Part shown: in pieces, positions 23,664 through 54,940 of the stretch
How the letters are laid out: every line of letters starts with the position of its first letter
Numbering within the stretch: position 1 is the first letter of the stretch
Source: Flavobacteriales bacterium
Lineage (GTDB): Bacteria; Bacteroidota; Bacteroidia; Flavobacteriales; Flavobacteriaceae
Direction: 5' to 3'
Assembly (NCBI GenBank): GCA_031408335.1
Contig: JANNWH010000014.1
Span: 8,784-72,783, forward strand
DNA: 64,000 nucleotides
Notes under the pieces: generated by a model
Databases searched by the model: none
Seen by the model: the letters and a program-made list of their open reading frames with translations, nothing else
Told to the model about the DNA's origin: nothing
Program-made: the position numbers and the translations under genes

Positions 23664-23690
23664 TCAAGAATCAAGAATCAAGATTAAGAT
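23664..23690 (+). repeat. TCAAGAA heptamer array upstream of four-helix gene 1
   Basis: TCAAGAA TCAAGAA TCAAGAT TAAGAT. Confidence 0.75.
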
Positions 23691-23717
23691 GAAAAATATA
23701 AACCAAAAAAATAAAAT

Positions 23718-24082
23718 ATGCGCCACAACTTTAAAAACCTTAAAATTTGGATATTATCGAAGGAAATAGCTTCAGATATTCATCAAATAGGATTAACATT
23801 TCCAAAGAATGAGATTTATGGATTGGTAAATCAAATGAATAGATGTGCTGTTTCAATGCCATCAAATATTGCAGAGGGTTCAAATAGAAATAAAAAACAT
23901 TTTCAATATTATCTGAATGTTAGTTTAGGTTCGTCATTTGAATTACAAACACAATTGTTGATTGCAAATAAAATTCTTATTTACCAATAGAAAAAACTAT
24001 AGAAATAGAAAATAAAATAATTGAATTTCAAAAGATGACATCAGGATTTATTGTCAAGTTAGATTCAGATCTTTCTTCTTGA
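23718..24082 (+). pseudogene. Four-helix-bundle protein (23S rRNA IVP/TIGR02436-like), apparently frameshifted
   Basis: HNFKNLKIW, FPKNEIYGLVNQMNRCAVSMPSNIAEG, GSSFELQTQL; stop at 23990, but adding one A near 23968-23972 gives NKNSYLPIEKTIEIENKIIEFQKM...SS* ending 24082 (121 aa). Confidence 0.8.
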
Positions 24083-24103
24083 TTCTTGCATCTTTTATCT
24101 AAA
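24076..24103 (-). repeat. Inverted heptamer copies downstream of four-helix gene 1
   Basis: TTCTTGA TTCTTGC ATCTTTT ATCTAAA; 24076-24088 is the exact reverse complement of 23665-23677. Confidence 0.7.
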
Positions 24104-24113
24104 ACCAAAAAAA

Positions 24114-25904
24114 ATGAGCGATATTACAAGAGGAGGACAATTCCTAGTTAAAGAAACCAAATGTGAAGACATCTTTACACCAGAAGATTTCTCAGAAGAA
24201 CAATTTATGATGCGTGATTCTGTAAAAGAATTTGCGGATAAAGAATTATGGGCACACAAAGATAAATTCGAGAAAAAGGATTATGCTTACACCGAATCTA
24301 CTATGCGCAAAGCAGGAGAAATGGGGTTTTTAGGCGTAGCTGTTCCAGAAGCTTATGGCGGAATGGGAATGGGATTTGTAGATACTTGTTTAGTATGTGA
24401 TTATATTTCAGGTGCAACAGGTTCGTTTTCAACCGCTTTTGGTGCTCATACCGGAATTGGAACAATGCCAATAACACTATACGGAAACGAAGAACAAAAG
24501 CAAAAATATGTACCAAAATTAGCTTCTGGCGAATGGTTTGGTGCGTATTGCTTAACAGAACCAGGAGCAGGAAGTGATGCTAATTCAGGAAAAACAAAAG
24601 CTGTTTTATCTGAAGATGGAACGCATTATAAAATCACTGGACAAAAAATGTGGATTTCAAACGCTGGATTTTGTTCTGTATTCATCGTTTTTGCTCGTAT
24701 TGGTGATGATAAAAATATTACTGGTTTCATTATTGAAAATGATTCGAATAACGGAATTACGATGAATGAAGAAGAACATAAATTAGGCATTCGTGCTTCT
24801 TCAACGCGTCAAGTTTTCTTTGCGGATACTAAAGTTCCAGTTGAAAATATGTTGTCTGAAAGAGGAAACGGATTTAAAATTGCAATGAATTCTTTAAATG
24901 TAGGACGAATTAAATTGGCTGCTGCTTGTTTGGATGCGCAACGTAGAGTAACTTCAAATGCAGTTAATTATGCTAATGAAAGAATACAATTTGATGTTGC
25001 TATCGCTACTTTTGGTGCTATTCGTTATAAATTAGCCGAAATGGCAACCAGTTGTTATGCTGGAGAAAGTGCTACTTACAGAGCTGCAAAAGATATTGAA
25101 AACAGAATTAAAATGCGTGAAGCAGATGGAAATTCGCACCAAGAAGCAGAATTGAAAGGTGTTGAAGAATTTGCAATCGAATGTTCTATCCTAAAAGTTG
25201 CCGTTTCAGAAGATGTCCAAAATTGTGCCGATGAAGGAATTCAAATTTATGGCGGAATGGGATTTTCTGAAGATACACCAATGGAAAGTGCTTGGCGTGA
25301 TGCTCGTATTGCTAGAATTTACGAAGGTACGAACGAAATAAATCGAATGTTATCGGTTGGAATGCTAATTAAAAAAGCGTTTAAAGGTCATGTTGATTTA
25401 TTAGGACCAGCTTCTAAAGTTCAAGAAGAATTAATGGGAATTCCTTCATTCGATACGCCTGATTACTCTGAATTATTTGCTGAAGAAAAAGAACTTATCG
25501 GAAAATTAAAAAAAGCATTTTTAATGGTTGCTGGTGGTGCAGTACAAAAATACGGTCCCGAATTGGACGGACACCAACAATTACTTATGGCTGCAGCCGA
25601 TATTTTAATTGAAATTTATATGGCCGAAAGCACCTTGTTACGTACAGAAAAAATGGCTAAAAAACAAGGCGAAGATAAAGTGAAAGAACAAATAGCTATG
25701 GCTAAGTTATACTTATACAAAGCAGTAGATGTGGTTACTCAAAAAGGAAAAGAAAGTATCATCTCTTTTGCCGAAGGCGATGAACAACGTATGATGCTTA
25801 TGGGTTTACGCCGTTTTACCAAATACACCAATATGCCAAACATTGTGGCATTAAGAGAAACTATTACCACCAAGTTAGTGGCGGAAAATAGCTATTGTTT
25901 TTAG
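24114..25904 (+). CDS. Acyl-CoA dehydrogenase
   Basis: YCLTEPGAGSDA, GQKMWISN, IQIYGGMGF, RIYEGTNEI. Confidence 0.95.
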   Translation: MSDITRGGQFLVKETKCEDIFTPEDFSEEQFMMRDSVKEFADKELWAHKDKFEKKDYAYTESTMRKAGEMGFLGVAVPEAYGGMGMGFVDTCLVCDYISGATGSFSTAFGAHTGIGTMPITLYGNEEQKQKYVPKLASGEWFGAYCLTEPGAGSDANSGKTKAVLSEDGTHYKITGQKMWISNAGFCSVFIVFARIGDDKNITGFIIENDSNNGITMNEEEHKLGIRASSTRQVFFADTKVPVENMLSERGNGFKIAMNSLNVGRIKLAAACLDAQRRVTSNAVNYANERIQFDVAIATFGAIRYKLAEMATSCYAGESATYRAAKDIENRIKMREADGNSHQEAELKGVEEFAIECSILKVAVSEDVQNCADEGIQIYGGMGFSEDTPMESAWRDARIARIYEGTNEINRMLSVGMLIKKAFKGHVDLLGPASKVQEELMGIPSFDTPDYSELFAEEKELIGKLKKAFLMVAGGAVQKYGPELDGHQQLLMAAADILIEIYMAESTLLRTEKMAKKQGEDKVKEQIAMAKLYLYKAVDVVTQKGKESIISFAEGDEQRMMLMGLRRFTKYTNMPNIVALRETITTKLVAENSYCF

Positions 25905-25925
25905 TTCTAAGTTAAGTTAATAAGG

Positions 25926-25960
25926 AAGAAGCCATTTGAATTTTCAGGTGGCTTTTTTTT
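25926..25960 (+). terminator. Intrinsic terminator of fad operon
   Basis: AAGCCATTTGAA-tt-TTCAGGTGGCTT plus T run. Confidence 0.75.
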
Positions 25961-25988
25961 GTACTTTAGCATAACTAAAAACTATCTT

Positions 25989-27290
25989 ATGAACATTAAA
26001 ATCATCTTACTATTATTAATTTTTACTTCCTCACTTTTGGGACAATCCAAAAATGAAAAAAAAATACTAACTGCTGTTGATGCAAGAACTCCTGCAGCCA
26101 TTGAACTTTTGAAAAAAGTAGTAAACATAAATAGTGGAACTATGAATTTTGAAGGTATTCGCAAAGTGGGTAACGTTTTTATGGAGCAGTTAAAAACCAT
26201 TGGGTTTGAAACTCGTTGGGCTTCGGGTGATTCTTTTAATCGTGCTGGCCATTTGGTGGCAGTTCATAAAGGAACAAAAGGACCCAAATTATTACTCATT
26301 GGTCATCTTGATACTGTATTTGAAAAAGACAGTCCGTTTCAATCCTATACCATGGTAAATGACTCAATTATTCATGGTCCAGGAGTTGCTGATATGAAAG
26401 GTGGCGATGTTATAATGATAGTAGCGCTGCAAGCATTATTCGATGCCGGAGTACTTAAAAACATGAATATCGAAATTGTGATGACAGGCGATGAAGAGTT
26501 GAGTGGCGAACCACTTGCTCTTTCTAAACTCGAAATTGTAGAAGCGGCAAAAAGAGCCGATATTGCCATTTGTTATGAAGATGGTGATGGACTTGCAACA
26601 ACCGCTTTAACATCAAGACGCGGCGCTGCTGATTGGATTCTTACCGTTAAAGGAAATGCCGCACACTCTTCTCAAATTTTTACAGATAATGTTGGTGTTG
26701 GTGCTATTTATAATGCATCACGAATTCTTAATGAATTTTATATTCAGCTGAATAAGGAAGAAAATTTAACCATCAATCCGGGTGTAATTTTAGGTGGAAA
26801 TAAAATAGCGTATGATGCTTCCACTAATACTGGAACTGCTTTTGGTAAAGACAATATTGTTGCACAAGAGGTGTATGTAAAAGGTGATTTAAGAGCCGTA
26901 TCTGCAACACAATTAGAAAAAGCACAAAAAATAATGACGGATATTGCAGCAGCCAATTATCCTGGAACTTCAGCTAGTATCGATTTTGGCGATGGAGGTT
27001 ATCCTCCAATGACCTTAACTGAAGGCAATAAAAAACTATTGGGTTATTTTAATCAAGTAAGTGTTGATCTCGGTTTTGGAACACAAACGGCTACCAATCC
27101 ACGCAAAGCTGGCGCAGCCGACATTTCATTTGCAAGCACTTATGTTGAAATGGCGTTGGATGGAATAGGACTTCCTGGAGCTGATGGTCATACGATTAAA
27201 GAAACCGCCAATATTGATTATTTACCTATTGAAGCTAAACGCTCAGCCGTTCTCATTTACAGATTGCTGAATGGTAATTTAAAGCAATAA
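25989..27290 (+). CDS. Exported M20/M25/M40 metallopeptidase (glutamate carboxypeptidase-like)
   Basis: Signal peptide; GHLDTVF, DMKGG, GDEE, AAHSS, GAADISF. Confidence 0.9.
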   Translation: MNIKIILLLLIFTSSLLGQSKNEKKILTAVDARTPAAIELLKKVVNINSGTMNFEGIRKVGNVFMEQLKTIGFETRWASGDSFNRAGHLVAVHKGTKGPKLLLIGHLDTVFEKDSPFQSYTMVNDSIIHGPGVADMKGGDVIMIVALQALFDAGVLKNMNIEIVMTGDEELSGEPLALSKLEIVEAAKRADIAICYEDGDGLATTALTSRRGAADWILTVKGNAAHSSQIFTDNVGVGAIYNASRILNEFYIQLNKEENLTINPGVILGGNKIAYDASTNTGTAFGKDNIVAQEVYVKGDLRAVSATQLEKAQKIMTDIAAANYPGTSASIDFGDGGYPPMTLTEGNKKLLGYFNQVSVDLGFGTQTATNPRKAGAADISFASTYVEMALDGIGLPGADGHTIKETANIDYLPIEAKRSAVLIYRLLNGNLKQ

Positions 27291-27326
27291 AAAGATTCTT
27301 TACCCGAATAACTTAAATACTTAATT

Positions 27327-28364
27327 TTAAATTAAATCACATTCCCAATCCAATTTTTTTTTATACCACAATTGACCGTTAGAAACTGATAATGGACATT
27401 CAAAATTATTGGTGAATAAACCTCCCGTTCCTAATCCTTGTGGCATAGAATTTTGTTGCAAATACGTCCATTGGGCAATTGCATTCAATCCTATATTACT
27501 TTCTAAAGCAGAGGTAATCCACCAACCAATTTGGTGTTTTTTGGCCAATGTAATCCATTCGTTTGTGCCTCGAAATCCGCCTACCAAACTGGGTTTTAAA
27601 ATAATGTATTGTGGATTAATTTTAATCAATAATTGCTCTTTTTCTTGTAAAGAAAATACACCAATTAACTCTTCGTCTAAAGCAATTGGAATTGGAGTAA
27701 TTTTACACAACTCTGACATACTGTCAGCATGATTTTTTGCTATAGGCTGCTCTATGCTATGTAATTTATAACCAGTTAATTGATTTAATTTATATAAAGC
27801 TTCTGATTGACTAAAAGCACCGTTAGCATCGACTCTGATTTCTATAGTTTTCTCATCAAAATTCTGACGAATAAAGTGTAATAAATCGAGTTCTTTTTGA
27901 AAATCGATGGCGCCAATTTTGAGTTTGATACAACTAAAACCCTGAGCAATTTTTTCTTCAATTTGCTGCTTCATATATCCCTCCTCACCCATCCAAACCA
28001 ATCCGTTTATTAATATTGATTTTTCTCCTTTTGTAAACGAAGATGGAAACAATAAAAAAGGCATTTCGGAAGCTAAAGATTGGAACGCCATTTCGACTCC
28101 GAATTGTATGGAAGGAAATTCGATTAGTGCTTCCCAAAGCGAGTCAATTCCTAAATGAATATTAGCGCATGTCCATTGTAATTTTGCTTCGTAATCGGGA
28201 CGATCGTCACAACTTAGTCCACGTAATAAACCACACTCTCCTATTCCCTTTTTACCGTTTTCTTCGAGAATGATAAACCAGGTTTCTTTTTGCGTTAGAA
28301 TACCTCGGGAAGTTCCTGAAGGCTTTTTAAATTCGAGATTATATTTTTGATAAGTTGCCTTCAA
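27327..28364 (-). CDS. menC: o-succinylbenzoate synthase
   Basis: Likely TTG start (MKATYQKY); KLKIG, RVDANG, SIEQP, ALDEEL, ILKPSLVGG enolase-fold motifs. Confidence 0.9.
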   Translation of the reverse strand: MKATYQKYNLEFKKPSGTSRGILTQKETWFIILEENGKKGIGECGLLRGLSCDDRPDYEAKLQWTCANIHLGIDSLWEALIEFPSIQFGVEMAFQSLASEMPFLLFPSSFTKGEKSILINGLVWMGEEGYMKQQIEEKIAQGFSCIKLKIGAIDFQKELDLLHFIRQNFDEKTIEIRVDANGAFSQSEALYKLNQLTGYKLHSIEQPIAKNHADSMSELCKITPIPIALDEELIGVFSLQEKEQLLIKINPQYIILKPSLVGGFRGTNEWITLAKKHQIGWWITSALESNIGLNAIAQWTYLQQNSMPQGLGTGGLFTNNFECPLSVSNGQLWYKKKLDWECDLI

Positions 28365-28407
28365 ATGAATGGGATTTTTAGGGAAAATTTCATAGTAGCA
28401 GTAAACG

Positions 28408-28480
28408 CTAGCCCAGATCGCAGCGGTATCCTTTTGTGGAGTGCAACGCAACAAAAGATATAGCGCAGAGCTGGATTAGC
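28408..28480. repeat. Imperfect ~73-bp palindromic intergenic element
   Basis: GCTAGCCCAG...TATCCTTTTGT / ACAAAAGATA...CTGGATTAGC arms. Confidence 0.65.
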
Positions 28481-28485
28481 TTCAA

Positions 28486-29163
28486 CTACAACTTAATACT
28501 CTGACCGATATCGAGTAGCATTAAATCTTTACCAGCATCGAAGAATTTCTTTTTGGCTTCGTCGTGGTCTATTTTGATATAACCGAAAGTATCGTAATGA
28601 ATTCCGAGTACTTTGTCACAATCGACAAAATCGGCTGCTATTAGCGCGTCATCTACATCCATTGTAAAATTATTTCCGATACAAAGAATCGCCAAATCGA
28701 GTTTGGTTCTCATTGGAATAAGTTTCATATCCATTGTTAAAGCGGTATCGCCAGAAATATAGATGTTTTTGTGTTCACCTTCGATTACAAACCCAGCTGG
28801 ATTTCCGCCATAACTGCCATCGGTAAAAGAACTAGAATGAATTGCGCTAACCACTTTTACTTTTCCGAAATCGAATTGCCAACTTCCGCCGTGATTCATG
28901 GGATGGTATTGGAATCCTTTTTCTCCGAAATGAGCAGCGACTTCGTAGGTAGAAACAATAATCGCATTGGTTCGTTTTGCAATCGCTTCTACATCAAGCG
29001 TATGATCGTTGTGAGCATGAGTAAGCAGAATATAATCGGCTTTTAATGTATTGATATCGATATGAGAAGCATTAGGATTTCCTGAAATAAAAGGATCGAC
29101 TAAGATATTTTTTCCACTGACTTCTATTCCGATAGCCGAATGTCCGTAAAAGGTTATTTTCAT
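28486..29163 (-). CDS. Metallo-beta-lactamase-fold hydrolase (UPF0173)
   Basis: THAHNDH, HSSS, YISGDT, GIHYDTF. Confidence 0.9.
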   Translation of the reverse strand: MKITFYGHSAIGIEVSGKNILVDPFISGNPNASHIDINTLKADYILLTHAHNDHTLDVEAIAKRTNAIIVSTYEVAAHFGEKGFQYHPMNHGGSWQFDFGKVKVVSAIHSSSFTDGSYGGNPAGFVIEGEHKNIYISGDTALTMDMKLIPMRTKLDLAILCIGNNFTMDVDDALIAADFVDCDKVLGIHYDTFGYIKIDHDEAKKKFFDAGKDLMLLDIGQSIKL

Positions 29164-29181
29164 AGTTATTTACTATTAAAA

Positions 29182-30117
29182 TTAAAAATACTGTTCTAAA
29201 TAATACAAGATTAAATCGGATACTAGAAAAATTAAAGCTAAGGATAACAACAAGGATAAAATGAAAGTACTTATGGCTAATTTCTTTAATTCGGGATCTA
29301 ATAATCTTGGCTTTTTATTTTTATAAACAGTTATTAAGTGACTAGACAAAGGAAAGTACGCCACAACAAACAAGTATTGATCAAAATTAAAATGGTTTAA
29401 AAAAGCAAATACTAAAACTAAAATCATAGCAGAAATAACTAAGAAAAAGTGGTATTTTTTTGCCCAAGCTCCTCCCATTTTTACGACTAAAGTATTTTTA
29501 TTGGATTTGGCATCTGAAGCTTCATCACGCATATTGTTTAAATTTAAAACGCCAACACTTAAAAAACCAATTGCAGTTGCAGGAAGTAACAATAACCAAT
29601 CAAAAGTTTTTGAGAACATAAAATAGATTCCGAAAGTACTTACTAATCCGAAGAAAATAAACACAAATAAATCGCCATAACCTCTATAACCATAAGCTCC
29701 TTTTCCAACTGTGTAGCGAATAGCAGAAGCAATTGCTAAAATTCCTAAAAATAAAAACACTAAAGAGTAGTATAAATAACTGTTTTTAAAAGAAAAATAA
29801 ATAAGGCAAATAGCAAACAAAAGTGTAATTATTGCCATAATTATGATTGCTCTTTTCATGGCTTGTGGCGAAATTAAACCACTTTGAATAGCTCGTTTTG
29901 GACCAACTCGATCATTATTATCAGTTCCTTTAATTCCATCACCATAATCGTTTGCAAAATTGGACAGAATTTGAAGTCCGAGTGTAGTTAACAAAGCAAA
30001 GATTACTATTTTCCAATTAAAAATAGCTTGCGACATTGCGTAGAAACTCCCAACCAAAATTCCGGAAACAGATAATGGTAATGTTCTAAGACGTGCGGCT
30101 TGGATCCAGTGTTTCAT
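29182..30117 (-). CDS. menA: 1,4-dihydroxy-2-naphthoate polyprenyltransferase
   Basis: RLRTLPLS, NFANDYGDG..GTD, NNMRD...D...K.TL. Confidence 0.93.
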   Translation of the reverse strand: MKHWIQAARLRTLPLSVSGILVGSFYAMSQAIFNWKIVIFALLTTLGLQILSNFANDYGDGIKGTDNNDRVGPKRAIQSGLISPQAMKRAIIIMAIITLLFAICLIYFSFKNSYLYYSLVFLFLGILAIASAIRYTVGKGAYGYRGYGDLFVFIFFGLVSTFGIYFMFSKTFDWLLLLPATAIGFLSVGVLNLNNMRDEASDAKSNKNTLVVKMGGAWAKKYHFFLVISAMILVLVFAFLNHFNFDQYLFVVAYFPLSSHLITVYKNKKPRLLDPELKKLAISTFILSLLLSLALIFLVSDLILYYLEQYF

Positions 30118-30165
30118 ATTTCTTTTTTTACCGCGAAGGCACTAAGGCACAAAGCTTTTTATATT

Positions 30166-31665
30166 TTACATCCAATTGCTGTCGGACGTTTCAATTTCGT
30201 ATAACCAAAGGTTGACATAGCCTTTAATTTTGTTGTAATCTCCCAGATGAAAAGCAATATTTCCTCCAGCAGTATGTATGGTTAGCGAACCAACATTGAT
30301 AGGTTTGTGCCAAAACAATTGAGAGGTTGTAATTCCTTGAATTTTATTTATTTCAATTATATTATTTACAATATCCCAAGCGCCATTTTGTTTAATAATA
30401 AAATCATCGTTTACAAAAAGACGGTAATTTCGATATCCAAAAAATAAAATTGATCCAATAAAAATAGTATAAAGAATTGTATAATTTGAAAATTCTAAAA
30501 TTGATTTTTCAACATAATTTCCAAATACAAAAAAAGCAATTACAGGCACTACAATAAATAAAAATATGGAAAAACCAAGTTTTCGCCAATTGGGTAGTAA
30601 CATTATCCCTTTTTGTGGAATTTGACTGAATAACAATTGTAATATTTCATTACTTTCATTGGTATTACAACCTGGAATTTCAATTACTGCTTTTTTACTT
30701 TTTTTATCTTCGCCAGAAGCTTGTTTTATTTTCATTTCTAAAACATCTAATTTCTTTTGGAAATAATTTCTAGAAACAGAAACAATTTGAACTTTTTCGG
30801 GTTTTATTATTGTGCTTTTAGTATCTATTAATCCGAAAGACAATAAAAGAGATCCATTTTGTTTGGTTATTTTATAGCCGAAATAACGAATTATTATTCT
30901 TAAAATATTGAAAACAAAAATGGCAATTAAAACGGTACCAATTAGTAACGAAATGGAGTTAATCACGACATCACTAGTGAAAAAATCGCCTATTTTTTTA
31001 TCGATATTCGAATTATGAGCAACTTCTTTAAGGTTGTGATAAATGGTAAAAAAGAACGTTAAAATTAATCCGAAACTTTTAAGATAATTGGATGTTAGTC
31101 CTACTTTTATCAAGCTTAAAAAACTAATTTTCAAAAATGGATTCGTATTTATTTTTGTTTCTGATACTTTAACTTCTTCAAGAGAATTTACTGTTGACTT
31201 GCTCTCATTATTAATTAATTTTGATTTTAAAGCCAACGCCAATTCGTGAGAAATGGCTTTTATTTTTCCTTCTTTATTAGAGCTCCCAGCAGTATCAACA
31301 TCAAGTGCATACACATTAATTAGTCTTTGAATTAAAGTTTGATTTATATTAACTTGTTGAATTTTATTAAGTTGGATTGTTGTTTTTGTTTTGTTTATAA
31401 TTCCCTCATTAATAATAAACTCATCATTTTCATCATCAATAAAAAAAGTAAAATTGATGTATTTTAGATAAGCTACAATTCCGATAGTAACAGTAATTAG
31501 AACAATTCCTATAACTACATAATTCTTATTTATCTCATCTGATTTGAAAGCCCAAACTAACAAAAGCGGCCAAAAGGCTTTTATATAATGTTGCAATGTA
31601 TTGACAAACATAATAACCACTCCAATTGGAGATTGCTTTTGAGGCGAATTAAAATTGTTTTCCAT
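30166..31665 (-). CDS. YdbT-like bacterial PH-domain membrane protein
   Basis: TM pairs with repeated bPH_2 domains (KIQQVNINQTL, TAGS/TAGG). Confidence 0.85.
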   Translation of the reverse strand: MENNFNSPQKQSPIGVVIMFVNTLQHYIKAFWPLLLVWAFKSDEINKNYVVIGIVLITVTIGIVAYLKYINFTFFIDDENDEFIINEGIINKTKTTIQLNKIQQVNINQTLIQRLINVYALDVDTAGSSNKEGKIKAISHELALALKSKLINNESKSTVNSLEEVKVSETKINTNPFLKISFLSLIKVGLTSNYLKSFGLILTFFFTIYHNLKEVAHNSNIDKKIGDFFTSDVVINSISLLIGTVLIAIFVFNILRIIIRYFGYKITKQNGSLLLSFGLIDTKSTIIKPEKVQIVSVSRNYFQKKLDVLEMKIKQASGEDKKSKKAVIEIPGCNTNESNEILQLLFSQIPQKGIMLLPNWRKLGFSIFLFIVVPVIAFFVFGNYVEKSILEFSNYTILYTIFIGSILFFGYRNYRLFVNDDFIIKQNGAWDIVNNIIEINKIQGITTSQLFWHKPINVGSLTIHTAGGNIAFHLGDYNKIKGYVNLWLYEIETSDSNWM

Positions 31666-32180: not shown

Positions 32181-32194
32181 TTATTTATATTATT

Positions 32195-32211
32195 ACTGAA
32201 CACTGAACACT
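32195..32211. repeat. ACTGAAC heptamer doublet
   Basis: ACTGAAC ACTGAAC ACT, same unit as the 54819 array. Confidence 0.7.
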
Positions 32212-32214
32212 TAT

Positions 32215-34723: not shown

Positions 34724-34751
34724 AATTATGAATTACAAATTATGAATTGTT
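34724..34751. repeat. Degenerate AATTATG heptamer tract
   Basis: AATTATG AATTACA AATTATG AATTGTT. Confidence 0.5.
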
Positions 34752-45448: not shown

Positions 45449-45471
45449 TTTATATTTTTTATTTAAATTAA

Positions 45472-46122: not shown

Positions 46123-46150
46123 TTTAATTAATTTAAAGGGTTAAAAATAG

Positions 46151-46304: not shown

Positions 46305-46331
46305 GTTCACAACAACAAAAAAACAAAAACA

Positions 46332-46862: not shown

Positions 46863-47650
46863 TGAGTACAATAGAAACAATAAATTCAGGCGATTTAGAG
46901 CTTTACGTTTATGGTGTATTAAACGAAAATGAAATGAATCAAATTGCAGAACTATCAAAATCAGATAGTGCAATAAAAAACGAAATTATATCGATTGAGA
47001 ATAGTATTTTACAATTATCCAGTAGCTTTTCTCCTACCATTTCTTCAGAAATTTATGAAAAAATTAAAACTAAATTAGGTTTAAAACCTGTTAGTATTGT
47101 TACGATGAAACCAAAATCAAATCTTTCGCAATATTTAAGTTGGGCAGCATCTTTAGCATTGTTAATTGGAATTGGTTATCAATACAACAAACAAATTACT
47201 ACCGAAAATAAAATAGTAACTATAGAAAAAGAAAAAGTAAAATTGAACGAGGCTGTTGCAACTTCTGAAGGTAAAATAAAAGAAACAAAAGCAGCTTTAG
47301 ATATTATTAGAGATACCAAAAACACCGTTATAACTCTTGGCGGACAAGCAGTTTCTCCAACATCGTATGCAAAAGTATATTGGAATAAAGAAACTCAAGT
47401 AGTTTATGTTGATGCTGCTGGATTACCAGAACCTCCAACCGGAATGGTATATCAAGTTTGGTCACTAAAATTGAGTCCGACTTTAACACCAACAAGTATT
47501 GGATTATTAGAAGATTTCAAATCGGATAACAATAGGATTTTTGCTGTAAGTACTACTGGCGATGCCGAAGCATTCGGAATTACATTAGAACCAGCTGGTG
47601 GAAGTAAAACGCCAACAATGGAACAATTATATGCATTAGGAAAAGTGTAA
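46862..47650 (+). CDS. RskA-type anti-sigma factor
   Basis: LELYVYGVL N-terminus, one TM, LPEPPTGMVYQVW, AFGITLEPAGGSKTPT. Confidence 0.9.
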   Translation: MSTIETINSGDLELYVYGVLNENEMNQIAELSKSDSAIKNEIISIENSILQLSSSFSPTISSEIYEKIKTKLGLKPVSIVTMKPKSNLSQYLSWAASLALLIGIGYQYNKQITTENKIVTIEKEKVKLNEAVATSEGKIKETKAALDIIRDTKNTVITLGGQAVSPTSYAKVYWNKETQVVYVDAAGLPEPPTGMVYQVWSLKLSPTLTPTSIGLLEDFKSDNNRIFAVSTTGDAEAFGITLEPAGGSKTPTMEQLYALGKV

Positions 47651-47707
47651 ATAAATTATATTTATTGTAAGTAAATTTTATACTTCCATTTCATAATATG
47701 CTTTTTA

Positions 47708-47744
47708 AAATCTTTGTCAAAGTAGTAAGCTTTGACAAAGATTT
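47708..47744. repeat. Perfect 15-bp inverted repeat between convergent genes
   Basis: AAATCTTTGTCAAAG-tagtaag-CTTTGACAAAGATTT. Confidence 0.8.
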
Positions 47745-47773
47745 CCTTATAATAAGCTATCCGTTATCTATTA

Positions 47774-48016
47774 TTAAGGATTCTCTTCCCATAATTTTTT
47801 TACAGCTTCCCAAACCTTCATTCGTAATTCATCCCGACGAAAAACACTATTGTTTGTTGTATATTTTTCAAGTGTTTCTTGTAATAGCTGTAGTTCTTTT
47901 GCTACAGCAGGATAATCATGACACATGATTTCTACTTTTTTTTCTTCTTCATTTGTAAGTACTCCAAGGCAATAATCTTGAAGTATCCCACTTGTGATAT
48001 AGTTTCCTATATTCAT
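47774..48016 (-). CDS. Stand-alone anti-sigma-domain-like protein (80 aa)
   Basis: YITSGILQDYCLGVLTNEE resembles the N-terminus of the 46862 anti-sigma; follows a sigma gene. Confidence 0.7.
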   Translation of the reverse strand: MNIGNYITSGILQDYCLGVLTNEEEKKVEIMCHDYPAVAKELQLLQETLEKYTTNNSVFRRDELRMKVWEAVKKLWEENP

Positions 48017-48065
48017 TTGTTTATTTTATTATTTAATAGTATGCGAATTATAAAAAAATAACTTT

Positions 48066-48686
48066 CTATTGTTGATAAAGCATTTTTAACAAACTAAGTC
48101 CTTTTCTTGCTCTAGTTTTTATTGTTCCCAATGGCAACTTTAAAATTTCAGCCGTTTGTTCTTGTGTCCAGCCATAAAAGTAAATTAAATCAATCACTTC
48201 GGAATATATTGAGTCAAGTTGTAATGCTTTGTTTTTAAAGTCAGAAAATTCTATAGAGCAACTGTTTAAAATTGTATTTCCAATAGTATCCTTACAATGA
48301 GAAAAAAAATCAATTTCTACTTGAAGCTTTTGATTCCGATAACTTGATGAACGTAAGTAATCAATGGCATGGTTTCTAGCTATATTTAACATCCAAGTAT
48401 ATATAGAACCTTTAGAATTGTCATAACTACCAATGTATTTCCATATTTTTACAAAAGTATCTTGCAATAAATCATCAGCTACTTCTGTTCGTTTAACAAG
48501 TTTTATAATCACTCCATAAAGTGCTCCACTATACATAGTATATAAAGTGTGAAAGCCTCTTTCGCTTTTAGATTGAACCAGCTTTACTAGTGAATCAAGA
48601 TCATTATTTGAGTTACAAAACTTAGTATCGCTACTTTTAAATACTGTTATAACTTGTCGTTTTGAATAAGTAGTTGTTGCTATCAT
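48066..48686 (-). CDS. Second ECF sigma factor
   Basis: ADDLLQDTFVKIW, WMLNIARNHAIDYLR, LPLGTIKTRAR. Confidence 0.9.
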   Translation of the reverse strand: MIATTTYSKRQVITVFKSSDTKFCNSNNDLDSLVKLVQSKSERGFHTLYTMYSGALYGVIIKLVKRTEVADDLLQDTFVKIWKYIGSYDNSKGSIYTWMLNIARNHAIDYLRSSSYRNQKLQVEIDFFSHCKDTIGNTILNSCSIEFSDFKNKALQLDSIYSEVIDLIYFYGWTQEQTAEILKLPLGTIKTRARKGLSLLKMLYQQ

Positions 48687-48908
48687 AGTGCTACTATTTT
48701 GCTTGTTTTAGTTACTTTGTTTTATAGAGTAAAACTAACTTTAGCTATTAGCATTGGAAATAGTGATAATCATCATTTTTCAAGAGTAATTTTATAGGAG
48801 AAAGATAAAATCCACTACATTAGCATTTTATAAAAGCATTTCCGTTTTCAAATTAAATGTGCCGTTATAAAACATTGGAAAACAAGGAAAAAACCATACT
48901 AAAAAGTT

Positions 48909-49718
48909 ATGCAGGAAAATAGTTTGAGAAAGATGCAGGATGCAGATTTCCTGTATAAAAAGATTGTTGCCATGTCATCTTCGTTTTTTATGAACGATAC
49001 TATTGGAGAGGTAGAACGATTTAGAGAAGAAGCGAATCTGCTACTTAACGGAATAAGAGGTACCGATGCGGTTATTGGGATATTTGATCACCTCAATTAC
49101 ACTCCAGTTTTAGAAGTAGGAGAAAAAGAATTTTGGGGTGAACTTCCCGAAGTACCTCAAGCTGAGAGAATGATTCAGATTATGAGCTTGCTTGAAAAAG
49201 AGTATTTGACTTTTTTTACCGATTCCGTAAAGTGGTTCACTGGAATGCTAGAGGAGATTCCTTTTGCTCAAAGAATGAACATACAAATCTTTCACTGTGG
49301 CATTAGATACACGCTTTTGGATGGCAAACCAATCTGCCTTTTTTCGAAAGGTTCTCCAATTCATTACGATGAAAATAGGAAATTTAATTACACATTTAAT
49401 TATGTTCAAAACATCAATCACCTTCTTAAAAAGAATTTTAGGGAATATTGGATACGGATCTCACATGGAGAAAACAGTGAATATATTCACACATTTCATT
49501 CCCAAGATAAACTGTATTCCAATAAAGATTTATTGTCTGTAAGGGAAAAAGAGATTTTAAGACTAATCGCTGATGATTTGGATACAAAAGAGATAGCTGA
49601 AAAATTATTTATTAGTATAAATACCGTTGGTAATCATCGTGGAAAGATGATTGACAAAATGGGAGTTAGAGATTCAACGGCATTGGTACAAATGGCAAAA
49701 ATGTCTGGAATTATATAA
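48909..49718 (+). CDS. LuxR-family regulator with uncharacterised N-terminal sensor domain
   Basis: C-terminal LSVREKEILRLIA...IAEKLFISINTVGNHR. Confidence 0.88.
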   Translation: MQENSLRKMQDADFLYKKIVAMSSSFFMNDTIGEVERFREEANLLLNGIRGTDAVIGIFDHLNYTPVLEVGEKEFWGELPEVPQAERMIQIMSLLEKEYLTFFTDSVKWFTGMLEEIPFAQRMNIQIFHCGIRYTLLDGKPICLFSKGSPIHYDENRKFNYTFNYVQNINHLLKKNFREYWIRISHGENSEYIHTFHSQDKLYSNKDLLSVREKEILRLIADDLDTKEIAEKLFISINTVGNHRGKMIDKMGVRDSTALVQMAKMSGII

Positions 49719-49809
49719 AAATAGTACTTTGTTTATACTAAAACAATAATTCTTAATAATATATATAAATGATTAAATATGACTTAATCCTTTTATTAAA
49801 TGAATAACA

Positions 49810-52800
49810 TTATTTCTTCAAAACCTTTTTGTATTTTATAAAAGCAAACGTCGCTAAAACAATAACAAATCCAAGCGAATAGAAAACAAAAGATGGAGTT
49901 ACTACTTTATCACCACTGGCATAAGAATGCAATCCTGTGAGGTAAAAATTCACACCAAAATACGTCATCATTATCGAATAAAAAGCCAAAACACTCATCA
50001 AATTAAAAACCCATTTGCCTCGCAAAGCAGGAACAAATCGTGCATGAATAACAAAAGCATAAATCATAATACTAATTAAAGCCCAAGTTTCTTTTGGATC
50101 CCAACCCCAATAACGTCCCCAACTTTCGTTTGCCCATTGTCCGCCTAAAAAGTTACCAATAGTTAACATTACTAGTCCAATGGTTAAAGCCATTTCGTTG
50201 ATATAGGTAATCTCTTGAATATGCAAATCCATTTTCACCTTATTCTTTTCATTAACAAATAGCATAAGTACTAACGAAACCAATCCTAAAATCATTCCTA
50301 ATGTAAACGGACCATAACTTGCTACAATGACAGCAACATGAATCATTAACCAATACGAATTTAAAACAGGTTGCAAATTAGCAATGGCTGGATCCATCCA
50401 ATTCCAATGCGCAATCATTAAAATCATTGAAGTTACAAACGTTCCTGAGGCGATTGTTAATTTTGATTTTCTGTCAAAAGCCAATGTAAAAAACATAGTT
50501 GCCCAAGCTACATAAATCATACTTTCATAAGCATCACTCCATGGTGCGTGACCAGAAATGTACCAACGAACTATTAATCCTAAAGTATGAATTCCGAAAA
50601 GCAAACCAATAATAATATGAAATCCGTTTACTACAAAGCGAAGTATTTTGCTTTCAAAAAAGATATTTACAATAACAATCAAAAGCATAATACAACCAAA
50701 AGTCATGTACAACCAAAATAAGTTTTTGAAAACATCGTATTTATTATACAGTATTTCTGATGAAATTTTGTCTTCACTTGGTCGGATTTTACTACCATAT
50801 CTTATTTGAAATTTCTCCAAACCTAAAACCATGGTATTTGCTAATGTATAATCTTTAGTTTTTGAAGCATTTGCTAATGATTCTAAATACAAAGGAAAAG
50901 CCGATTTAATAGTATCTAAAGCGGTTCCGGTTAGTTCGTTTAATTCTAAGTTAGAAACCCATTTATTATTTTTATCATTCGGAATTGGATAAATTTTTAG
51001 AATACTACCAAATAAAGCTGAATTCAAAAGATTCACTTTTTTATCGGTTTCTATAAAATCTTTTTGAAATTGATTCGGAATTGCCGATTTGTAGGCTTCA
51101 TCTAAATAAGGAGACAATTTATAATTTCCTTTGGCATCAAAAAAACTTTTAAAACTAACATATTTATCTTTTGGCTTTGCTCCTATTATTTTTCGAATAC
51201 TGTCGTTACCATTTTTAATGTAAATCAACGGAACTTCAATCCATGCAAAAGGAAATTGCTTAATAGATAAAAATACCTGATCAGAATTCATTCCGTTATA
51301 ACCGTCTTTTTTACTTACTTTTCGCAATAATTCAGACGAAAAAGTATTGATTGGTTTCATTCTTCCACCATCATCTTGAATTACTAATCGTCCAAATTTT
51401 TCCGCCTGAAGTTCGGGTACTTTGTATTTGGTTATAGAATCTAAATAATTAATATTAGCATTATTTGTTGGATGATTTTGAGAAAATCCATTTAAAGAAA
51501 ATAAAATAAAGAGTACAGAAAGTAGTTTTGATTTCTTAGATTTTACATTTTCTAGTTTTCTTTTCAAATCTGCAAAACGAGAATGTTTGGTAAATAAAAT
51601 TGCCATCATAGCAAAAAACAACATAAAGTAACCAATGTAGGTTATTAAAGTTCCCCAAAAATCGTGGTTGACAGAAAGTATTGTTCCTTTTTCATCTGGA
51701 TCGAATGACGCTTGAAAAAAACGATAACCTTTATGATCTAGAATATTATTCATGTAAATGTGTGAATTGAAGCTTTTAGGCTGATCAAGAACAGTGACTT
51801 TACTCTCGTAAGAAGAATAACTTTTTTCAGTTCCTGGATATTTTTTCCCAATAAAGTCATTCAGTTTAATACTAAATGGCAAATTATACACTTTACTTCC
51901 GTAGAATAGAGTAAAATCGAGTTTGCCAACTTTAACAACTTTGGGTTGACCAATACTTCCTTTAGAACCAACAAGCGTAATTTCTTTAGTTTCACCATCT
52001 GATTCAACGGATAGCGTTAAAGCATCTTCCCCTTTTTTATTTTTATAATCACCACTCGATTTAAAAGATTTCTTTCCTGTTAAAGGAACTTCCGGAAAAA
52101 CAAACTGTGCGCCACCAACACTATACAACGAACGATACATCAATTTTTGCAACGAATCTCGGACTACTTTCCCTTGAAATTTATCAGCCATTCTCATAAA
52201 TTGACCATCAAAAGGAGTGGTTATTGTATTGTTTTTAGAATCGATGTTTATTGCGCCTTTGGTTGGAATATCTAAAGCAAAAAGTAAGTTATGAATATTT
52301 TGAACTTCACCCGCTTTTAAATAATGTTCGTGTCGAGAACCTTCGCTAGATTCTACTAATTTTATATACAAATCTCCTTTATTGGATGCAACTACGGTTT
52401 CTTTTGCATCCATTACAAAATCCTTGTAGCTTATTTCAAAAGGAGTTTTATCGAATTTTTCATTGATAGAAAAGTTATTATTAGTGGCTTGAGATAATAA
52501 CAAAGATTTTTCAATTGTACGTCGTTTAATTTGACCACGGAAATCACCATCAATAAAAACGGTTAAATAATTTTTATCAGAAAAAAACTGATTTGAAGAT
52601 GCTCCTTCTCGAATTGGCATCATTCCTTCATAACTTATGTAACGTGTAATTATAGCACCTAAAATAATAAATACAAAAGAAAAATGCAACAATAAAGTAG
52701 CCCATTTTTCTTTTTTAAATAACTGATAGCGTTTCATATTTCCGAAGAAATTAATAAAGAAAAACAGATGGATCGCTTCAAACCACCATGAATTATAAAT

Positions 52801-52929
52801 AATTATTCTAGCAGTATCGGTATTATAATCGTTTTCAATAAAGGTTCCAATTGCCATTGAAGCGGCATACGTTAAAAATAACATAGCCATTAAACGAGTT
52901 GAGAAAAGAATAGATTTTAATTTTTCCAT
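49810..52929 (-). CDS. ccsA: Cytochrome c biogenesis CcsB-CcsA fusion (System II)
   Basis: SWWFE, GYRFFQAS, WANESWGRYWGWDPKETW, GLHSY; ATG at 52929, -7 box TACTTTTG at 52971-52978. Confidence 0.92.
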   Translation of the reverse strand: MEKLKSILFSTRLMAMLFLTYAASMAIGTFIENDYNTDTARIIIYNSWWFEAIHLFFFINFFGNMKRYQLFKKEKWATLLLHFSFVFIILGAIITRYISYEGMMPIREGASSNQFFSDKNYLTVFIDGDFRGQIKRRTIEKSLLLSQATNNNFSINEKFDKTPFEISYKDFVMDAKETVVASNKGDLYIKLVESSEGSRHEHYLKAGEVQNIHNLLFALDIPTKGAINIDSKNNTITTPFDGQFMRMADKFQGKVVRDSLQKLMYRSLYSVGGAQFVFPEVPLTGKKSFKSSGDYKNKKGEDALTLSVESDGETKEITLVGSKGSIGQPKVVKVGKLDFTLFYGSKVYNLPFSIKLNDFIGKKYPGTEKSYSSYESKVTVLDQPKSFNSHIYMNNILDHKGYRFFQASFDPDEKGTILSVNHDFWGTLITYIGYFMLFFAMMAILFTKHSRFADLKRKLENVKSKKSKLLSVLFILFSLNGFSQNHPTNNANINYLDSITKYKVPELQAEKFGRLVIQDDGGRMKPINTFSSELLRKVSKKDGYNGMNSDQVFLSIKQFPFAWIEVPLIYIKNGNDSIRKIIGAKPKDKYVSFKSFFDAKGNYKLSPYLDEAYKSAIPNQFQKDFIETDKKVNLLNSALFGSILKIYPIPNDKNNKWVSNLELNELTGTALDTIKSAFPLYLESLANASKTKDYTLANTMVLGLEKFQIRYGSKIRPSEDKISSEILYNKYDVFKNLFWLYMTFGCIMLLIVIVNIFFESKILRFVVNGFHIIIGLLFGIHTLGLIVRWYISGHAPWSDAYESMIYVAWATMFFTLAFDRKSKLTIASGTFVTSMILMIAHWNWMDPAIANLQPVLNSYWLMIHVAVIVASYGPFTLGMILGLVSLVLMLFVNEKNKVKMDLHIQEITYINEMALTIGLVMLTIGNFLGGQWANESWGRYWGWDPKETWALISIMIYAFVIHARFVPALRGKWVFNLMSVLAFYSIMMTYFGVNFYLTGLHSYASGDKVVTPSFVFYSLGFVIVLATFAFIKYKKVLKK

Positions 52930-53082
52930 TGAAAAATATAATAGTTTTAATTCCCGTGTCTTCGGGAGCACAAAAGTAAAATAAAATTGTTGATTTTTAG
53001 GTTTAATAGTTGTCGATTTAAGTGTTTTTTAAGAGACGTTGACTAAATATTTTTATTCAAATAAAATTAATAATTTAGCAAA

Positions 53083-53844
53083 ATGTTAGAAGTAGTGATA
53101 ATTGGTTCAGGAAATGTAGCACAACATTTGATAAAAGCTTTCAAAAAAAGTCGGAAAATCAAATTAGTTCAAGTATTTGCTCGAAATAAAGAAGCGATTT
53201 CGCATCTAATGCCAATTAGCAAAATTACTTCTGATTATGCTAATTTAAAAGAAGTTTCTTTGTACATAATAGCTGTTTCTGATAATGCTGTTGTAGAAGT
53301 TTCGTCCAAAATTCCTTATTCGAGTAAAATGGTGTTACATACTTCTGGAAGTATTGCCATTTCTGATTTGGATTCTAAAAACGTTCGAGGTTCCTTTTAT
53401 CCAGTTCAAACTTTTTCAAAAACTAAAAATATAGACTTTAGAAAAATTCCAATTTGCCTCGAAATCGAACAAGAATCACTATATAAAGTTTTGGATAGTA
53501 TTGCGTTTTCTATTTCAGATATCGTATATAAAATAACTTCCGAACAACGAAAAGCATTACACATTGCAGCCGTTTTTGTAAATAATTTTTCGAATCATTT
53601 ATACCAAATTGGAAACGATATTTGTGATGAAAATCAAGTTTCTTTTGCTATTTTAAAACCGTTAATTACTGAAACTGCTAATAAAGTGATGAAGCTTTCT
53701 CCAATTGATGCTCAAACTGGACCCGCAAAACGAAACGATTCACAAACAATCAACTTACATTTGAATTTTCTTACCAATGAAAATCAAAAAGAAATTTACA
53801 AATTACTCACTAAATCCATAATTGACAATGGCAAAAAGTTATAA
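53083..53844 (+). CDS. Rossmann-like and DUF2520 domain protein
   Basis: IIGSGNVA, LHTSGS, YPVQTFSK, LHIAAVF.NNF.NHL, QTGPAKR. Confidence 0.9.
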   Translation: MLEVVIIGSGNVAQHLIKAFKKSRKIKLVQVFARNKEAISHLMPISKITSDYANLKEVSLYIIAVSDNAVVEVSSKIPYSSKMVLHTSGSIAISDLDSKNVRGSFYPVQTFSKTKNIDFRKIPICLEIEQESLYKVLDSIAFSISDIVYKITSEQRKALHIAAVFVNNFSNHLYQIGNDICDENQVSFAILKPLITETANKVMKLSPIDAQTGPAKRNDSQTINLHLNFLTNENQKEIYKLLTKSIIDNGKKL

Positions 53845-54355
53845 AGAACTCATGAATTCCATCACTACTTTTATTTTTGATATTGATGGAGTACTTACCG
53901 ACGGAACCGTTCACGTTTCTCCAATAGGCGAAATGCTTCGTGAAATGAACATTCGCGACGGATTTGCCATGAAAGCAGCATTAGAAAGTGGCTACAAAGT
54001 TTGCATTATTTCGGGTGGAAGTAATGAAGGCGTTCGTATTCGATTAAAAAATCTTGGTATTACCGATATCCATTTAGGAACTCCCGATAAAGTAGCAACC
54101 TTTAAAGAATACATCGAATTGTATACTGTTAAAGCAGAAAATGTGTTGTATATGGGCGATGATATTCCCGATTTTCATGTCATGCAATTAGTCGGTTTAC
54201 CAACTTGTCCACAAGATGCAGTTCCTGAAATAAAAGCGATTTCAACCTATATTTCTCATAGAAATGGTGGAAAAGGTGCTGTTCGTGATGTAATTGAACA
54301 AGTTATGAAAGTACAAGGAAAATGGCATTTGTATTATAATGGAAAGTTTGATTAG
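53828..54355 (+). CDS. kdsC: KdsC-family HAD phosphatase
   Basis: FDIDGVLTDG, DGFAM, YMGDDIPD, GGKGAVRDV. Confidence 0.9.
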   Translation: MAKSYKELMNSITTFIFDIDGVLTDGTVHVSPIGEMLREMNIRDGFAMKAALESGYKVCIISGGSNEGVRIRLKNLGITDIHLGTPDKVATFKEYIELYTVKAENVLYMGDDIPDFHVMQLVGLPTCPQDAVPEIKAISTYISHRNGGKGAVRDVIEQVMKVQGKWHLYYNGKFD

Positions 54356-54359
54356 TAAT

Positions 54360-54389
54360 GTTCAGTGCTCAGTCCCGAAGCTTCGGGAC
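54360..54389. repeat. Inverted heptamer copies plus perfect 18-bp palindrome upstream of four-helix gene 2
   Basis: GTTCAGT GCTCAGT (reverse complement of ACTGAAC) then GTCCCGAAGCTTCGGGAC. Confidence 0.75.
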
Positions 54390-54422
54390 AGTTGACAGTT
54401 ACTTTAGATTTAAATAAATAAA

Positions 54423-54800
54423 ATGACATTTCAAGACTTATTAGCCTATCAAAAATCATTTGCCTTAGCAATGAAAATATATAACATATCAAAATTATTT
54501 CCAAAAGAAGAAACATATTCTTTAACTGATCAAATTAGACGTTCTTCAAGGAGTGTTTCTGCAAATATCGCAGAAGCATACAGAAAAAGAGATTATCCAA
54601 AACATTTTCACAGTAAACTAACAGATGCCGATGCAGAAAATTCAGAAACACAAGTATGGCTTGAATTCTCATACAATTGTGAATATATAACTCAAGTCAT
54701 TTTCTATGAACTAATCCAAGATTCTAATGAAGTCGGAAAACTCATAAATTATATGATACAAAATCCTCAAAAATTTGGAGTAAATTCAAATAATTCGTAA
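54423..54800 (+). CDS. Four-helix-bundle protein (23S rRNA IVP/TIGR02436-like)
   Basis: FQDLLAYQKS, FPKEETYSLTDQIRRSSRSVSANIAEA, ENSETQVWLEF, EVGKLINYMIQNP.KF. Confidence 0.92.
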   Translation: MTFQDLLAYQKSFALAMKIYNISKLFPKEETYSLTDQIRRSSRSVSANIAEAYRKRDYPKHFHSKLTDADAENSETQVWLEFSYNCEYITQVIFYELIQDSNEVGKLINYMIQNPQKFGVNSNNS

Positions 54801-54818
54801 ATTGTTTAACTAAATTAA

Positions 54819-54940
54819 ACTGAACACTGAACACTGAACACTGAACACTGAACACTGAACACTGAACACTGAACACTGAACACTGAACACTGAACACTGA
54901 ACACTGAACACTGAACACTGAACACTGAACACTGAACACT
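54819..54940. repeat. Perfect tandem repeat (ACTGAAC)x17 + ACT
   Basis: Counted directly; ends 4 nt before the ATG at 54945. Confidence 0.97.

Follow-up and report, generated by a model that had tools for sequence, protein, structure and literature searches.

Inverted Heptamer Arrays around PF05635 Four-Helix-Bundle Genes at Operon Junctions of a Flavobacteriales Genome

Two cassettes in the window

We analyzed a 64,000-nucleotide (nt) stretch of contig JANNWH010000014.1 from a Flavobacteriales bacterium (the window), which belongs to a genome of 2.88 Mb and contains two genes of the four-helix-bundle family PF05635. Each gene is set between an upstream array of short tandem repeats and a downstream array of the reverse complement, which are referred to as its arms; gene and arms together are referred to as a cassette. 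Both cassettes of the window stand amid protein-coding genes. Gene 1 occupies a junction with a thiolase gene upstream and an acyl-CoA dehydrogenase (ACAD) gene downstream and has the following features.

23645-23690, + strand: 5′ arm, a degenerate AAGAAxC heptamer array (sequence; Tandem Repeats Finder (TRF), AAGAATC x4.6 at 23652-23683)
23718-24082, + strand: gene 1, a frameshifted PF05635 four-helix-bundle open reading frame (ORF) (Pfam 1.2e-23, 83.8 bits, profile positions 1-82 of 106)
24060-24100, + strand: 3′ arm, the reverse complement of the AAGAAxC array, with TTCTTGATTCTTG as its core (sequence, inverted-repeat score, fold)

The 5′ arm begins 3 nt past the thiolase stop codon (23640-23642), and the 3′ arm, overlapping the ORF at its end, finishes 13 nt before the ACAD start codon (24114). 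The arms contain a perfect 13-nt match, CAAGAATCAAGAA. The first frame of gene 1 covers 23718-23990, with its stop at 23988-23990; a one-base frameshift lies near 23975-23985, and in translation the last helix runs on in another frame to a TGA at 24080-24082. The genome profile search flagged two TAG within the match. Gene 1 is a probable pseudogene, judged from its reading frames. Its orthologues occupied the same junction in eight congeners, with 75-85% identity. The flanks of the genes were scored for inverted repeats (IR score) using a +1/-2 scheme within this genome and a +1/-1 scheme across the genus. The IR score of gene 1 was 8 in the +1/-2 scheme, because the 3′ arm overlaps the ORF end and falls outside the scored flank, and 17 over 25 nt in the +1/-1 scheme, where the controls had a 95th percentile of 16. 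The predicted RNA fold of this cassette encloses the ORF in both the minimum-free-energy (MFE) and the centroid structures (z = -3.46), with the 5′ arm paired to 24069-24100.

Gene 2 occupies the junction between a HAD-hydrolase gene and a UbiA-family gene and has the following features.

54358-54373, + strand: 5′ arm, GTTCAGT GCTCAGT at 54360-54373 (genome array scan, C14:63142-63156)
54374-54387, + strand: G+C-rich palindrome CCCGAAGCTTCGGG in the leader (sequence; hairpin in the MFE and centroid folds)
54423-54800, + strand: gene 2, an intact 125-aa PF05635/TIGR02436 four-helix-bundle protein (Pfam 3.7e-32)
54819-54940, + strand: 3′ arm, (ACTGAAC)x17.4 (TRF score 244, 100% matches)

The heptamers of the 5′ arm begin 4 nt past the HAD-hydrolase stop codon (54353-54355), and the 3′ arm stops 4 nt short of the UbiA-family start codon (54945). 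This 3′ arm is longer than those of the orthologous cassettes in two congeners (L020 and L039), which have 2-4 units. A leader palindrome of the CCCGAAGCTTCGGG type was not seen in other cassettes. The protein scored 111.2 bits with the Pfam profile (cut-off 33.8) and 106.7 bits with TIGR02436 (cut-off 24). The RxxxSxxxNxxE motif, which is conserved in the family (Zhang & Ye 2013, PMC3936711), is present in gene 1 (QMNRCAVSMPSNIAEG) and gene 2 (QIRRSSRSVSANIAEA). The stem predicted for the gene-2 cassette is weak (~15 nt, z = -1.1) and not significant.

Arm architecture in the genome and the genus

We found nine PF05635 matches in this genome, and an upstream array of 7-8-nt units with its reverse complement downstream was present in 9/9. 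The arm unit differed from copy to copy, save that gene 2 and its closest paralogue, the C20 copy (70% identity), have GTTCAGT in common. The IR score (+1/-2) was at least 12 in 8/9 copies, while the controls had a median score of 8, with 13 as their 99th percentile. The genus sample consisted of 60 congeneric genomes (61 in total with this genome), and 110 non-redundant cassettes were retrieved from the 60. PF05635 genes were present in every one of the 60 congeners, at 1-12 per genome. The IR score (+1/-1) of the 110 cassettes had a median of 20, and 79% scored at least 16; for 677 control small genes, the median was 11 and the 95th percentile was 16.

The period was equal in both arms, being 7 in 65 of the 95 cassettes counted, 8 in 23, 9 in 4, and 10 in 2. 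The median arm was 33 nt long and contained 4.6 units with 83% complementarity. The units consist of a conserved core of 4-5 nt and variable positions, and their mirror order outscored unit-shuffled arms (P = 3e-16). Genus cassettes were scored for flanks where ORFs of at least ~50 codons lay on both sides; among the 98 with clear flanking ORFs, 90 were in the sense direction amid co-directional genes, 8 were at convergent or divergent boundaries, and none was antisense. The median distances were 0 nt from the upstream stop codon to the 5′ arm, 25 nt from the 5′ arm to the cassette ATG, 6 nt from the cassette stop codon to the 3′ arm, and 9 nt from the 3′ arm to the next ATG. These results show that the cassette is a unit of ~0.45-0.6 kb composed of an array of ~4-5 units (7 nt, sometimes 8-10), a short A-rich leader, the PF05635 ORF, and the mirror array, and that it sits sense-oriented in the short spacer of two co-directional host genes. 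The shared architecture that an earlier note had described from the two window genes alone, in which the units are gene-specific and the insertion at an operon junction is in sense, thus held in 9/9 copies here and in most of the 110 genus cassettes, and the enrichment of inverted arrays over control genes that it called for was obtained within one genus (IR median 20 vs 11).

The controls already reject coincidence, that is, slippage arrays arising in A+T-rich spacers beside small genes. In its favor, a 7/8-period array was present in 9.5% of the co-directional spacers of this genome. However, arms were found in 9/9 copies with equal periods on both sides, the IR scores were far above those of the controls, the mirror order and the own-arm specificity (see below) were highly significant, and 90 sense cassettes stood against 0 antisense. 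The chance that coincidence accounts for the cassettes is negligible.

The PF05635 gene was broken in 4/9 copies here (C25:16960, C5:302406, C17:58627, and C14:32516, the last being gene 1), with the arms persisting. The lesions were in-frame TAA codons in three copies and a frameshift in one; the copies of the congeners were mostly intact.

Inheritance of cassettes and distribution of gene-less arrays

Protein clade, junction, and arm unit matched almost one to one on the protein tree (n = 105); a covariation of clade and unit was among the checks that the earlier note had suggested. Junction labels changed 33 times on the tree, against 83 times with shuffled labels. This near one-to-one match is consistent with the cassettes being long-standing residents inherited mainly vertically with their operons. 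The states of the two window junctions among relatives were as follows.

HAD/UbiA junction, filled: two congeners, orthologous gene ~80% identical
HAD/UbiA junction, gene-less: three congeners, a 167-nt element retaining arms and leader
HAD/UbiA junction, other: several with other heptamer arrays; about twelve short empty spacers
Thiolase/ACAD junction, filled: gene-1 clade in 9 (this genome included), ATAGAAx clade in 3, a distant clade in 2
Thiolase/ACAD junction, gene-less: two hairpin-only (~100 nt), one chimeric remnant
Thiolase/ACAD junction, other: seven with a different palindromic element; about six empty

Filled and empty states, which the earlier note had sought, were therefore both present at both junctions; the DNA identity of the relatives tops out at ~83%, a distance at which site boundaries and array-length polymorphism are not alignable.

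The chimeric remnant (L043, genome G020) carries, directly after the thiolase stop codon, an eight-unit GTGAAGA array that replaces the beginning of a gene-1-type cassette (5′ arm and initial ~40 codons), the 3′ arm being kept; arrays of a new unit can therefore arise at an occupied junction. The different palindromic element, ~100 nt long (TTGTCATTTCGACGAAGGAGAAATC ... reverse complement), was located at the thiolase/ACAD junction in L054, L055, L062, L065, L067, and L069. At the upstream junction of the thiolase gene, this genome has an IS200/IS605-family (RAYT-like) transposase gene (21879-22340, + strand; flanks 21790-22430) with its own inverted repeat of ~20 nt (CTCCGTAGGTGCGACCTGTT / AACAGGTCGCTCCTACGGAG), and ten congeners have in its place a four-helix-bundle cassette with AGTATTAAGAC-type arms. 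The thiolase gene is flanked by two cassettes in several congeners (L127/L044 in G060:C57, L140 in G019:C14, and L136 in G049:C12); the paired cassettes differ in clade and unit, and one β-oxidation operon thus holds two.

The dN/dS values at nine junctions were 0.10-0.29, with dS at 1.2-1.5 (saturated). These values indicate that the four-helix-bundle proteins are functional and under purifying selection. A few copies nested within the clade of another junction retained the unit of that clade (L005, L142, L139, L117, and L154); among them is the C4 copy of this genome, which nests within the ATAGAAx clade of the thiolase junction. Judging by these copies, the relocating unit includes the arms. 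Among the genus cassettes, we saw no relocated copies that were near-identical, and the near one-to-one match of clade and junction likewise speaks against the active transposase-less mobile unit suggested in the earlier note. The 3′ arm fitted its own 5′ arm better than that of an orthologue (20.0 vs 15.2; 90% of 79 cassettes; P = 9e-12). This own-arm fit despite saturated neutral sites, together with the mirror order, indicates that arm complementarity within a cassette is actively maintained.

The mismatches in the arms comprised 86 G·U, 134 A·C, and 435 transversions, a pattern unchanged at stricter thresholds; isolated mismatches comprised 19, 30, and 98, respectively. The G·U to A·C ratio was 0.64, against 0.69-0.81 predicted by sense-strand composition. 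An antisense bias in this wobble test was only apparent and was accounted for by the base composition of the sense strand. The maintenance of the arms looks DNA-like, with the arms converting each other or a DNA structure or site being selected, unless G·U pairs are not tolerated. The cassette RNA could still fold, as in the model in which the gene-1 arms enclose the ORF. The mismatches bear on the explanation that the cassette is a pure RNA element, in which the arms would only form an mRNA stem, RNase III would excise the ORF or the stem would relay translational coupling, and the protein would have no role in arm recognition. Coxiella burnetii's 23S rRNA intervening sequence (IVS) shares this design and is cleaved by RNase III (PMC4990558), and the enclosed ORF of gene 1 (z = -3.46), the kept complementarity, and the 90 sense against 0 antisense cassettes agree with this explanation, as does the position of the stem base, which would join a site just past the upstream stop codon with one ~9 nt before the downstream start codon. 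However, G·U pairs were not enriched (86 vs 134 A·C) and the 435 transversions were as background composition predicts, and the explanation accounts neither for the strong purifying selection on the protein nor for the 7-8-nt periodicity and the conserved 4-5-nt core amid varying positions. We regard a pure RNA element as rather unlikely. The idea in the earlier note that the arms loop out the ORF in the mRNA drew support from the gene-1 fold and none from the mismatches.

Gene-less arrays were also abundant. Exact arrays with a period of 7 numbered 130 in this genome, whereas those with periods of 8 and 9 numbered 19 and 8, respectively. The GTTCAGT/ACTGAAC family comprised 74 arrays (68 intergenic), with only two cognate genes in this genome. 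GTTCAGT adjoins stop codons and ACTGAAC adjoins start codons; divergent spacers held 3/67 of the intergenic arrays of this family set between two called genes. All 14 array pairs had the polarity GTTCAGT...ACTGAAC, with hairpin loops of 10-150 nt. In regards to the other units, 7/9 in this genome had few or no arrays beyond their own gene. A GTTCAGT array (C27:16624-16669) reaches the end of its contig, and positions 81-97 of both C9 and C19 carry one and the same GTTGAAG tract; such repeats may break or confuse the assembly, and the array counts and lengths in this genome are therefore lower bounds. Arrays as three-frame stop signals were ruled out, (GTTCAGT)n being open in all frames.

At C5:182212-182375, a remnant of a gene-2-like ORF (81% identity), made up of its final ~25 codons and its trailer, lies between two arms. 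This remnant demonstrates, at the level of sequence, that at least some gene-less arrays are gutted cassettes. Three tracts in the window had been taken as gene-less in the earlier note.

32195-32211, - strand: gene-less array of the gene-2 unit, GTGTTCAGTGTTCAGT (TRF; array scan, C14:40977-40996)
12408-12441, + strand: AACATTC heptamer tract x4.9, within the 1226-aa ORF 9690-13370 and read ...NIQHSKFNIQH...
34724-34748, strand not assigned: AATTATG-type heptamer tract in a divergent spacer; six exact arrays of this unit type in the genome

The 32195-32211 array directly follows the stop codon of the 32215-33054 gene and precedes the start of the 31665-32180 gene. Accordingly, the first and the third tracts stood as gene-less, while that at 12408 lies inside an ORF, from which we note that heptamer arrays can lie in frame within coding sequence. 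The proposal that orphan tracts are scars holds for some, namely the C5:182212-182375 remnant and the 167-nt and ~100-nt derivatives at the two window junctions, and not for 12408, which is no orphan.

Across the 61 genomes, GTTCAGT arrays were associated with the gene-2 clade (Mann-Whitney P = 0.0008; Fisher odds ratio 4.6, P = 0.008), and GGTTGTC arrays with their cognate clade (Mann-Whitney P = 0.002; Fisher odds ratio 9, P = 0.016). At junctions filled in relatives, the spacers of this genome showed no enrichment of hairpins or arrays (hairpins in 8/15 vs 48% background, P = 0.8).

These distributions bear on two further explanations. The cassette may be a selfish element at the DNA level, of the REP/RAYT type, whose arrays serve as ends or as a single-stranded DNA hairpin for host replication or repair, with the protein as a specificity factor and the gene-less arrays mobilized in trans. 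The clade unit retained by nested copies, the three cassette clades at the thiolase/ACAD junction in different species, the 74 GTTCAGT-family arrays for only 2 cognate genes, their abundance following the cognate gene, the polarity shared by 14/14 pairs, the absent wobble signature, and the evolution of the arms in concert all suit such an element. However, the protein has no nuclease, recombinase, or HUH motif, the genome has no reverse transcriptase, relocations look rare, and the copies found in one genome are old (only 70% identity between the two GTTCAGT-type genes); neither a target duplication nor an excision product was observed among relatives of ~83% DNA identity or below, arrays occur in genomes without the gene, and the spacers at junctions filled in relatives were not enriched in hairpins. 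We consider a DNA-level element of this kind improbable on balance.

Alternatively, the proteins may be domesticated host regulators that bind the junction arrays in trans and act on mRNA stability, termination, or translation, their own arms being autoregulatory. Long persistence at the same junctions, at dN/dS values of 0.10-0.29, the co-occurrence of arrays and gene, and the placement of arrays after stops and before starts, with only 3/67 in divergent (promoter) spacers, would be expected of such regulators; an equal placement has been published for gene-less heptamers (PMC4692102; PMC4679880). Against this, 7/9 units have few or no arrays beyond their own gene, 4/9 genes are broken here, some genomes have arrays and no gene, and a copy number of 1-12 per genome is unlike that of a core regulator. 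Regulation in trans is quite unlikely to be the main explanation.

Proposed repeat recognition and relation to known systems

We propose that the cassette is an old resident of operon junctions which is expressed by read-through, whose arms pair, and whose protein reads its own repeat units; we put the probability of this reading at about one half. Read-through transcription of the host operon would express the four-helix-bundle gene, which would explain the absolute sense bias. The arms would pair and close the ORF into a stem-loop like an rRNA IVS. The protein, as a relative of Avd, would by analogy read its units at about one unit per protomer; with such cognate recognition, each protein clade would be coupled to its unit, and the greater abundance of gene-less arrays alongside the cognate gene would be explained. 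Once its ORF is lost, a cassette persists as a gene-less hairpin or array, and array length varies widely among genomes. The unit core, the ~4.6 units per arm, and the link between arrays and gene fit this recognition but do not prove it. The PDB relatives 2rld and 2gsc contain five chains each.

Several observations weigh against cognate recognition by a junction resident. Since 4/9 copies are broken, the protein is dispensable in this genome. Because clade and unit are inherited together, their link is confounded, and a reader of single strands could not recognize both an arm and its complement. The array-gene association tests ignore phylogeny, and the cassette's own arms contribute a few of the hits; as clear exceptions that lack the cognate gene, genome G042 has 74 GTTCAGT hits and each of five genomes has 37 or more GGTTGTC-like hits. 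The contact of arms with stop and start codons may be a trivial outcome of insertion into spacers of 9-40 nt, and we do not treat it as informative. A selected RNA stem should give mostly G·U mismatches; no G·U excess was found in the genus cassettes, and selection on an RNA stem is therefore not visible. The weak stem of gene 2 (15 nt, z = -1.1) points the same way.

The cassette is the operon-junction counterpart of the ORF-bearing IVSs of 23S rRNA. Ralph and McClelland reportedly described ORF-bearing IVSs in the 23S rRNA of Leptospira in 1993. The IVS of Coxiella burnetii contains a gene of the S23p/PF05635 family and a 28-bp stem with GACAGAT heptamers that vary among strains, and it is excised by RNase III (Warrier et al. 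2016, PMC4990558). In both settings, an ORF of the same family lies within terminal inverted repeats in the sense direction of the host transcript and has decayed in some lineages, and the arm contains tandem heptamers, whose copy number is variable among Coxiella strains. In contrast, the host here is an mRNA junction of protein genes rather than a 23S rRNA helix, and the Rfam search of the window returned Flavo-1 and one tRNA only, with no rRNA and no family covering the arms. Furthermore, each genome carries 1-12 cassettes, mostly with a unit of their own, the arms show no G·U tolerance, and the proteins are under purifying selection, whereas that of Coxiella is reported not to be made (PMC4990558). 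A full-text literature search returned no paper linking PF05635 genes to inverted heptamer arrays outside rRNA.

Gene-less intergenic heptamers have been reported as GGGAATC in Xanthomonas and GGGGAYT in Nostoc (Rehm et al. 2015, PMC4692102), and as TAACTGA in Beggiatoaceae, Cyanobacteria, and some Bacteroidetes (MacGregor 2015, PMC4679880). Neither paper assigns a gene family; G-quadruplex or translational roles were proposed, and “no mechanism is evident” (PMC4692102, PMC4679880). Those heptamers resemble ours in their 7-nt units at 2-26 copies (~4 preferred), in convergent pairs that can form hairpins, in their enrichment amid co-directional genes and rarity in divergent spacers, and in opposite polarities after stops and before starts; the ACTGA core of TAACTGA resembles ACTGAAC of this genome. 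They differ in that one specific gene family has the arrays here as its arms, gutted cassettes make up some of the gene-less copies, and array abundance follows the cognate gene.

The REP/REPIN-RAYT systems (REP, repetitive extragenic palindrome) also combine a small gene with inverted copies of short hairpin repeats, which are also scattered without the gene and mostly lie just after genes, with one gene type per repeat type and long-lived, mostly vertical inheritance. However, the protein here is a four-helix bundle without HUH or tyrosine motifs and without a transposase match, the repeats are tandem arrays of 7-8 nt rather than single palindromes of 20-40 nt, and the IS200-like gene of this genome (21879-22340) has separate, different arms. 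In regards to transposons and miniature inverted-repeat transposable elements, inverted ends are present; the copies with the gene in this genome are old (70% identity), and the nearest relatives have ~83% DNA identity.

Gene 2 has the fold of Avd, the accessory protein of diversity-generating retroelements (DGRs), as a homologous four-helix bundle (Avd-like PF22296, 9.8e-11). Avd is said to be pentameric, basic, and nucleic-acid-binding, reportedly from work by Alayyoubi et al. in 2013. Gene 2 scored 31.9 bits with the Avd equivalog NF033474 of NCBIfam, below the cut-off of 80, and no template or variable repeats accompany it; reverse transcriptase (RVT_1) had no match anywhere in the genome. 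A DGR component was therefore ruled out. The cassettes also recall ring proteins of the TRAP type, in that a core of 4-5 nt is followed by 2-4 variable nt and the repeat number is close to the protomer number (4.6 units; pentamer in a homologue); this is pure analogy, and the complementary arm would be unreadable by the same single-strand site. The four-helix-bundle family is further known from inside cas operons (PMC3936711), and a pentamer of four-helix bundles is attributed to Lin (2006) as cited in PMC3936711.

More broadly, PF05635 pentamers might be sequence-specific readers of 7-8-nt tandem repeats, with the gene and its inverted arrays perpetuating themselves without a nuclease or transposase. 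Such pairs might be the source of ORF-bearing rRNA IVSs and of the heptamer excess in Bacteroidota, Cyanobacteria, Xanthomonas, and others, and gene-less arrays might be non-autonomous offspring kept or multiplied with the cognate protein. We hold this extension to be possible but doubtful. If the protein does read its own repeat, this would be a new type of protein-repeat partnership, and the pairs would be modular sequence-specific nucleic-acid binders usable as tools. Three puzzles would be joined here and made testable, namely the function of PF05635, the origin and meaning of ORF-bearing 23S IVSs, and the excess of intergenic heptamers. Pentameric structures have been solved for PF05635/TIGR02436, a very large family for which we know of no function outside DGRs. 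On a modest reading, annotators should treat gene and arms as a single inserted unit in operons.

The Flavo-1 RNA match in the window lies at 28406-28481 (+ strand), with 63.2 bits against a gathering score of 42, and assigns the organism to the Flavobacteriia. Brackets of 16-36-nt inverted repeats were also observed around other small genes of this genome, at C19:35081-35371, C2:123444-123755, C2:142680-143057, C8:82282-82707, C12:141396-141851, and C14:73525-73938 (64742-65155 in window numbering, outside the window). Two of them are GIY-YIG-like by sequence motifs only (one without an NCBIfam match), three are GxxExxY (TIGR04256), and one is DUF559. There may be a wider class of small-gene cassettes with hairpin arms, of which the four-helix-bundle cassettes would be one member. 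The TTGTCATTTCGACGAAGGAGAAATC palindromic element of the thiolase/ACAD junction in congeners matches the arms of the GIY-YIG cassette at C2:123444 in this genome.

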